Translations under genes and position numbers: made by a program
In this document: positions 38,751 to 38,776 of the stretch, in pieces
How positions within the stretch are numbered: the first letter of the stretch is position 1
Layout: the number at the start of each line of letters is the position of its first letter
Notes under the pieces: model-generated
The model's input: only the letters and a program-made list of their open reading frames with translations
Database searches by the model: none
Told to the model about the DNA's origin: nothing
From: Escherichia coli
Lineage (GTDB): Bacteria; Pseudomonadota; Gammaproteobacteria; Enterobacterales; Enterobacteriaceae
Length of the DNA: 64,000 nt
NCBI RefSeq assembly: GCF_003334385.1
Contig: NZ_QOWN01000022.1
Strand: one strand, 5' to 3'

Positions 38751-38776
<26 letters not shown>

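Follow-up and report, generated by a model that had tools for sequence, protein, structure and literature searches.

Convergent overlapping gene pairs are a known class of gene arrangement, and 58 convergent overlaps of coding sequences (CDSs) have been counted in Escherichia coli (Lillo & Krakauer 2007, PMC2174442). Among convergent overlaps of at least 5 nt, phase 123:132 is the most frequent, with 49% of the cases, and a model based on stop codon mutation accounts for overlaps of this orientation (Lillo & Krakauer 2007, PMC2174442). A Rho-independent terminator is predicted in just ~20% of the E. coli genes that take part in convergent overlaps (PMC2174442). The pair formed by ycjG and mpaA is an ordinary member of this class. 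As in the pairs described there, two real genes on opposite strands have their 3' ends in common, in the commonest phase; the overlap appears to stem from the loss or shift of a stop codon, followed by reading on to the next antisense stop; and, like most of the 58 E. coli overlaps, the pair is without a Rho-independent terminator. It differs from the class in that the event can be traced to a single base and in that the mpaA stop appears to have moved through a frameshift in the final codons of the gene, not through a point mutation of the stop codon itself. Nothing essential differs.

A second related system is the excludon, in which the transcripts of neighboring genes overlap. In ExcludonFinder (2025, PMC12288877), ycjG-mpaA is among 165 convergent excludons present in 50% or more of 58 RNA-seq data sets of strain MG1655, and the tpx-ycjG pair is classed as divergent. 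Table 1 of that study further names three noncontiguous operons, mpaA-ycjG-tpx among them; the criterion for such an operon is that one gene takes part in both a convergent and a divergent excludon, and it does not require proof of a single RNA. The authors argue for a raised synteny of excludon pairs and for functional links between their genes (PMC12288877). The ycjG-mpaA pair is itself listed as a convergent excludon; as in other excludons, its transcripts overlap, and fragments of double-stranded RNA (dsRNA) are detectable. Classical excludons, however, combine a long overlap of untranslated regions with mutually exclusive, opposing genes, whereas ycjG and mpaA overlap in their CDSs, act sequentially, and have one repressor in common.

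Two further systems concern the end of convergent transcription. Bidirectional intrinsic terminators and termination driven by polymerase collision have been described for convergent pairs of E. coli (Wang et al., bioRxiv 10.1101/2022.10.23.513370). The gene geometry of ycjG-mpaA is the same as in the pairs with bidirectional terminators, but in E. coli a hairpin with A and U tracts is missing. Untranslated antisense read-through, in turn, is terminated by Rho (Adams et al. 2021, PMC7815308). As in the documented cases, + strand RNA at ycjG-mpaA is bicyclomycin-sensitive and contains more C than G, whereas here Rho termination is known on one strand only and its position is approximate.

The ycjG-mpaA junction in Escherichia coli

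The DNA analyzed is a stretch of 64,000 nucleotides from E. coli (contig NZ_QOWN01000022.1), termed the window below, with the gene order tyrR, tpx, ycjG, mpaA, ymjC remnant, ycjY, pgrR, and mppA. The coordinates of the features discussed are provided in Table 1. A preliminary description of this DNA had proposed that ycjG and mpaA converge with 26 bp of common coding sequence, and both the ends of the open reading frames (ORFs) and the identical RefSeq CDSs bear this out. RefSeq gives the same 26-bp overlap at locus L001 (ycjG, 3112..4077; mpaA, 4052..4780) and likewise in O157:H7. The same description counted eight codons plus the stop for each gene, which was rounded up, since the common DNA holds the stop, seven full sense codons, and 2 nt of the eighth. 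The YcjG ORF ends in LQFTTGELHL, of which (F)TTGELHL and the stop lie within the overlap, and the MpaA ORF ends in WHPKDAIRPS, of which (P)KDAIRPS and the stop do so. The phase is 123:132, with codon positions 1, 2, and 3 of ycjG opposite positions 1, 3, and 2 of mpaA.

Table 1. Features of the ycjG-mpaA locus (positions in the window)
Feature	Position	Strand	Basis or remark
ycjG CDS, L-Ala-D/L-Glu epimerase, 321 aa	37811..38776	+	TAG stop 38774-38776
mpaA CDS, murein tripeptide amidase, 242 aa	38751..39479	-	TGA stop 38753-38751
Coding DNA common to ycjG and mpaA, 26 bp	38751..38776	both	ORF ends
TAGG junction, site of the proposed 1-nt deletion	38774..38777	+	Alignment with TGAGG of 10-bp relatives
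C-rich, G-poor RNA continuing from ycjG, antisense to mpaA	39097..39296	+	C/G 1.4-2.0, composition
C>G RNA continuing from mpaA, antisense to ycjG	38451..38650	-	C/G 1.5-2.1
p19-captured duplex, ~21 nt, 2-nt offsets	39274-39296	both	Huang et al. 2020, Table S3, mapped to the window
p19-captured duplex, ~21 nt, 2-nt offsets	39328-39351	both	Huang et al. 2020, Table S3, mapped to the window

Both ORFs are genuine protein-coding genes, as is evident from three-dimensional structures, the RefSeq CDSs, and orthologues in the best 80 of 215 relatives. All 321 residues of YcjG match PDB entry 1JPD with 100% identity, and MpaA is identical to PDB entry 5HXD over residues 1-237. The gene identities and the common murein-peptide pathway had also been given correctly: the two are sequential enzymes of one pathway, in which YcjG acts after MpaA and epimerises L-Ala-D-Glu for PepD. 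The transcription units of ycjG and mpaA both belong to the regulon of the repressor PgrR, and both genes are weakly expressed relative to tpx (Huang et al. 2020). The RefSeq start of mpaA is the ATG at 39479 (242 aa). On the - strand, the ORF stays open upstream over 39480..39539, up to a TTG at 39539 that would give 262 aa, and an older U00096.2 table uses the TTG start (b1326, 1387894-1388682).

Of the 5,426 complete genomes of E. coli, 5,415 matched an 86-bp probe across the junction, 4,444 of them at an identity of at least 99%. In strain HH107 (NZ_CP116405.1), which is otherwise identical, a 2-kb query was split by the insertion of an IS3-family transposase, with an annotated AL1L pseudoknot. 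The gap between mpaA and ycjY (39540..39810) holds no more than a gene remnant (ymjC region) that carries the annotation of a partial "NAD-dependent dehydratase". In O157:H7 and many other E. coli strains, this gap contains ~665 bp more, with an intact SDR-family oxidoreductase and an additional frameshifted alpha/beta hydrolase.

Overlap length in Enterobacteriaceae

GTDB species representatives were scanned with MpaA, and of 215 relatives the best 80 were taken, which are all Enterobacteriaceae; ycjG is convergent to mpaA at every one of these loci. Together with two further E. coli genomes, they form a set of 82 loci. In this set, the most frequent overlap is one of 10 bp (45 loci), which occurs in Enterobacter, Klebsiella, Kluyvera, Kosakonia, Leclercia, Lelliottia, Trabulsiella, Yokenella, and other genera, followed by that of 26 bp (27 loci), which comprises Escherichia, Citrobacter, and Salmonella arizonae and diarizonae. 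Overlaps of 4 bp (3 loci), 33 bp (1 locus), and 47 bp (1 locus) are rare, and in 5 loci the genes do not overlap and are separated by a spacer of 88-331 bp. Some overlap, from 4 to 47 bp, is retained in 77 of the 82 loci; this retention could also come from selection for tight convergence.

Two of the spacers are of particular composition. The 312-bp spacer of locus L056 (3226-3539) contains, at ~3264-3301, a bidirectional terminator of textbook form (AAAAAACCCGCAT...ATGCGGGTTTTTTT), and the spacer of locus L053 (3227-3314) contains REP-like palindromes. Since relatives carry a terminator or REP-like palindromes in a spacer at this place, the tight overlap is dispensable. The L056 spacer also harbors a small ORF for a hydrophobic peptide of 39 aa on the ycjG strand. 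An assembly labelled Chryseobacterium sp. 18061 (CACSKA010000006.1, locus L060) has an mpaA-ycjG locus of the Enterobacteriaceae type that is nearly equal to that of L056, with an MpaA identity of 85%; this assembly is probably mislabelled or contaminated.

Proposed origin of the 26-bp overlap

In the 10-bp state, the TGA of mpaA is antisense to a TCA within the ycjG codons CTT-CAY. In the alignment of the junctions, the 26-bp group lacks one base that the 10-bp group has, exactly at the ycjG stop, with the ends CTT-TAG-GATGCCAGCGCAG in the former versus CTC-TGA-GGCTGCCAGCGCAG in the latter. Removal of one base from TGAGG gives TAGG, so that the ycjG stop is kept and the mpaA frame is shifted beyond its old TGA, to end 16 nt later. 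The 1-nt difference between TGAGG and TAGG points to stop displacement as the origin of the longer overlap, and parsimony provides the direction. Because many genera show the 10-bp state, whereas that of 26 bp is limited to one clade among the best 80 of 215 relatives, parsimony within the Enterobacteriaceae, on an unrooted comparison, suggests a change from 10 to 26 bp.

The length reached is not exceptional. The antisense frame of mpaA within ycjG contains 15 stops, about one per 66 nt, and an antisense stop at such intervals makes a run-in of 26 bp typical, with no excess over chance.

The plasticity of the junction is illustrated by stop codon swaps in Citrobacter. In three species of the Citrobacter youngae group (L015, L017, and L018; ~3183-3208), the ycjG stop TAG has become AAG, and the same base change (window position 38774) turns an AAA of mpaA into TGA on the opposite strand; mpaA thereby cedes seven codons to ycjG, and 26 bp are still shared. 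In a fourth species (L024; 3183-3229), a TAG-to-CAG change is combined with the long mpaA, which results in the 47-bp overlap.

Sequence constraint on the shared bases

Conservation was computed as mean pairwise identity on the 24 loci that have the canonical layout of the 26-bp overlap. For MpaA, the identity was 0.62 in the last 8 amino acids, versus 0.93 in the 72 amino acids before them, whereas the corresponding values for YcjG were 0.89 and 0.91. The variable columns of the 26 bp were mainly third positions of ycjG codons, which are second positions of mpaA codons, and base changes at these sites therefore nearly always alter an MpaA residue. The tail of MpaA is also partly absent from the crystallized chain (5HXD), which stops at residue 237, and homology between Vibrio MpaA (4AXV) and MpaA stops at residue 235. 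For YcjG homologues, the alignment reaches to 2-3 residues from the C-terminus. The conserved end of YcjG and the variable tail of MpaA indicate that YcjG governs the shared DNA and that the MpaA tail is a passenger. Judging from these alignments, the MpaA tail would be dispensable, and the overlap would be tolerated for this reason.

Terminators, transcript ends, and double-stranded RNA

The preliminary description had also stated that there is no room for terminators between the two genes and that their mRNAs overlap in antisense. The former agrees with our analysis: intergenic DNA is absent, and neither an intrinsic terminator nor a bidirectional one (a G+C-rich hairpin with A and U tracts) was found on either strand in ~150 nt around the junction. 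In accordance, a consensus scan of positions 37000-41000 revealed no sigma-70-like promoter or intrinsic terminator near the junction, inverted repeats at the junction were weak and had long loops only, and a search of 37000-40000 against the Rfam families gave no match at E <= 1. Four stretches of 140-150 nt were folded on both strands. The + strand folds at the junction were no better than those of shuffled sequences, and on the - strand one stable hairpin was obtained directly past the mpaA stop, with a z-score of about -2.5 relative to shuffles. A role of this hairpin as a conserved RNA element was ruled out, as the consensus of 16 orthologous segments had an energy of -4.65 kcal/mol and covariation support was absent. 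As there is neither intergenic DNA nor an intrinsic terminator, polymerases would run into the opposite gene.

In the data of Adams et al. (2021, PMC7815308, supplementary file 2), + strand RNA that runs antisense through mpaA is terminated by Rho in a region assigned to position 1,390,286 of NC_000913.3. Reads upstream and downstream of this position were 47 and 14 without bicyclomycin versus 58 and 68 with the inhibitor, with a Rho score of 3.94 and a p value of 7.2e-5 (Adams et al. 2021, PMC7815308); read-through downstream of ycjG on the + strand is hence raised by bicyclomycin. An offset of 1,351,119 between the window and NC_000913.3 was obtained by matching the Term-seq flanking sequences of these authors. 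It takes the 3' end as base 51 of the 61-nt strings, in agreement with the classifications of these authors; a shift of 10 nt would be immaterial. The Rho region accordingly maps to ~39167 in the window, 391 nt beyond the ycjG stop, a position that is approximate since the Rho score is calculated from 800-nt windows. The + strand RNA in this part of mpaA has the C-rich, G-poor composition expected for Rho (Table 1). The - strand RNA continuing from mpaA also contains more C than G, and on this compositional basis the corresponding stretch of ycjG is a candidate Rho loading region, with Rho presumably acting on the - strand too. The entries of the Adams et al. supplement (PMC7815308) include no - strand 3' end or Rho site antisense to ycjG.

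According to Huang et al. 2020, in which it was re-tabulated, a + strand unit of Conway et al. ends, as we interpret the entry, at U00096.2 position 1,388,177; this end corresponds to ~39034 in the window, inside mpaA. Part of the + strand RNA within mpaA could arise at an unrecognized antisense promoter and not from ycjG. The proposed antisense overlap of the two mRNAs is substantiated, as the full-length mRNAs must have a complementary stretch of at least 26 nt, and the Rho region lies ~390 nt past the ycjG stop. On the - strand, a strong Term-seq 3' end is located at ~39440 (NC_000913.3 position 1,390,559; Adams et al., PMC7815308), ~40 nt inside the mpaA ORF and directly after a perfect 6-bp GC hairpin (39460-39445; GCGCCG-AACG-CGGCGC) that is followed by AUUUCC. 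At this site, close to the mpaA start, transcription may end prematurely or the RNA may be processed.

Both p19-captured duplexes of Table 1 lie inside mpaA and correspond to sense/antisense dsRNA of the RNase III type. Their abundance is low, with ~2 RPM versus thousands for tpx, and the accessible rows of the Huang et al. table contain no p19 duplex at the 26-bp overlap proper. The whole tpx CDS (37186..37692, -) is covered by p19 dsRNA, and its cluster (S-116) is in the top 20 by abundance. The tpx dsRNA is attributed to + strand RNA from the tyrR 3' UTR, the ycjG 5' UTR, or read-through from tyrR to ycjG (Huang et al. 2020). The overlap of neighboring transcripts that characterizes an excludon is seen for ycjG-mpaA in the CDS overlap, in the published listing, and in the transcript ends inside mpaA. 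However, any expressed pair with overlapping CDSs has this property, so that the listing says little.

Discussion

The overlap as such and the antisense transcription that follows from it are already known from annotation, the excludon map, and a public data set of Rho-dependent 3' ends. With regard to its nature, we consider it likely that the junction is a neutral, tolerated tail-to-tail overlap with read-through terminated by Rho, which arose by displacement of the mpaA stop, and that it is not a purpose-built regulatory device.

We investigated several other explanations. The ycjG-mpaA pair might be an excludon under selection, in which convergent transcription, by way of dsRNA cleaved by RNase III or of polymerase interference, couples or limits the expression of both genes and the overlap is maintained for this purpose. 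The convergent, divergent, and noncontiguous-operon listings (PMC12288877), the p19 duplexes within mpaA, the overlap kept in 77 of the 82 loci (the best 80 of 215 relatives and two further genomes), and the activity of YcjG and MpaA in one pathway all agree with such a role. However, a listing is automatic for a pair of this kind, and mutual exclusion would be counter-productive for sequential enzymes under the common repressor PgrR. Furthermore, the length of the overlap and the MpaA tail vary freely, five lineages carry an inserted spacer, at least one of them with a classic bidirectional terminator, the dsRNA reads are few next to those of tpx, and no conserved RNA structure was found in the 16 orthologous segments. 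Taken together, these data make a selected excludon unlikely. A more elaborate selected circuit, in which read-through from ycjG into mpaA and from mpaA across ycjG into tpx balances the sequential enzymes and perhaps links tpx, via RNase III and Rho, is quite improbable.

Head-on collisions of polymerases, positioned by a nascent stem-loop, may alternatively be the main mode of termination. This is suggested by the convergence of two genes without a spacer, by the mechanism described for convergent pairs of E. coli (bioRxiv 10.1101/2022.10.23.513370), and by the stable - strand hairpin past the mpaA stop (z = -2.5). Yet the mechanism requires a defined intergenic stem-loop, and none with A and U tracts is present at the junction; the - strand hairpin is not conserved (-4.65 kcal/mol, without covariation support); collisions are expected to be rare because both genes are weakly transcribed; and the bicyclomycin sensitivity of + strand read-through points to Rho. 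We regard this explanation as very improbable. It is hardly conceivable, finally, that the overlap is an annotation artefact in which one of the proteins truly ends ahead of the common bases. The 5HXD chain, which contains only residues 1-237 of MpaA, could be taken in this sense, but the stops are fixed by the sequence, with no earlier in-frame stop before 38751 or 38774, an MpaA of 237 residues would overlap ycjG anyway, the YcjG structure covers the full C-terminus, and the same ends are found across the 80 species representatives (the best 80 of 215). An artefact was thus rejected, the stops being unambiguous and conserved.

The explanation that we favor, a neutral overlap produced by stop displacement, can be formulated as follows. 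The ycjG stop would have been shortened by one base (TGAGG to TAGG) in an ancestor shared by Escherichia, Citrobacter, and Salmonella. The ycjG stop would have survived, and mpaA, ending in another frame, would have become 16 nt longer, up to the next antisense stop, which gives the 26 bp. The cost of the overlap would be small, with the sequence set by the conserved C-terminus of YcjG and the non-conserved tail of seven MpaA residues taking whatever amino acids result. Each RNA polymerase would continue into the opposite gene, the ribosome would leave at the stop, and the untranslated antisense RNA would then be ended by Rho a few hundred nucleotides further on. The two mRNAs would be complementary well beyond 26 nt, and some dsRNA cleaved by RNase III would result. 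Considering the weak expression of both genes and their common repressor PgrR, the effect of the overlap on ycjG and mpaA expression is probably small, and a large regulatory role is unlikely.

The importance of this junction is limited beyond housekeeping, and what it adds is modest, namely, a worked example of the origin and persistence of convergent overlaps. Relatives that have gained a spacer display the canonical bidirectional terminator that is absent from E. coli. In the example provided by ycjG and mpaA, one base would have been lost, with the stop kept in one gene and the other gene lengthened, and of the two proteins encoded by the same bases, one is constrained and the other is free.
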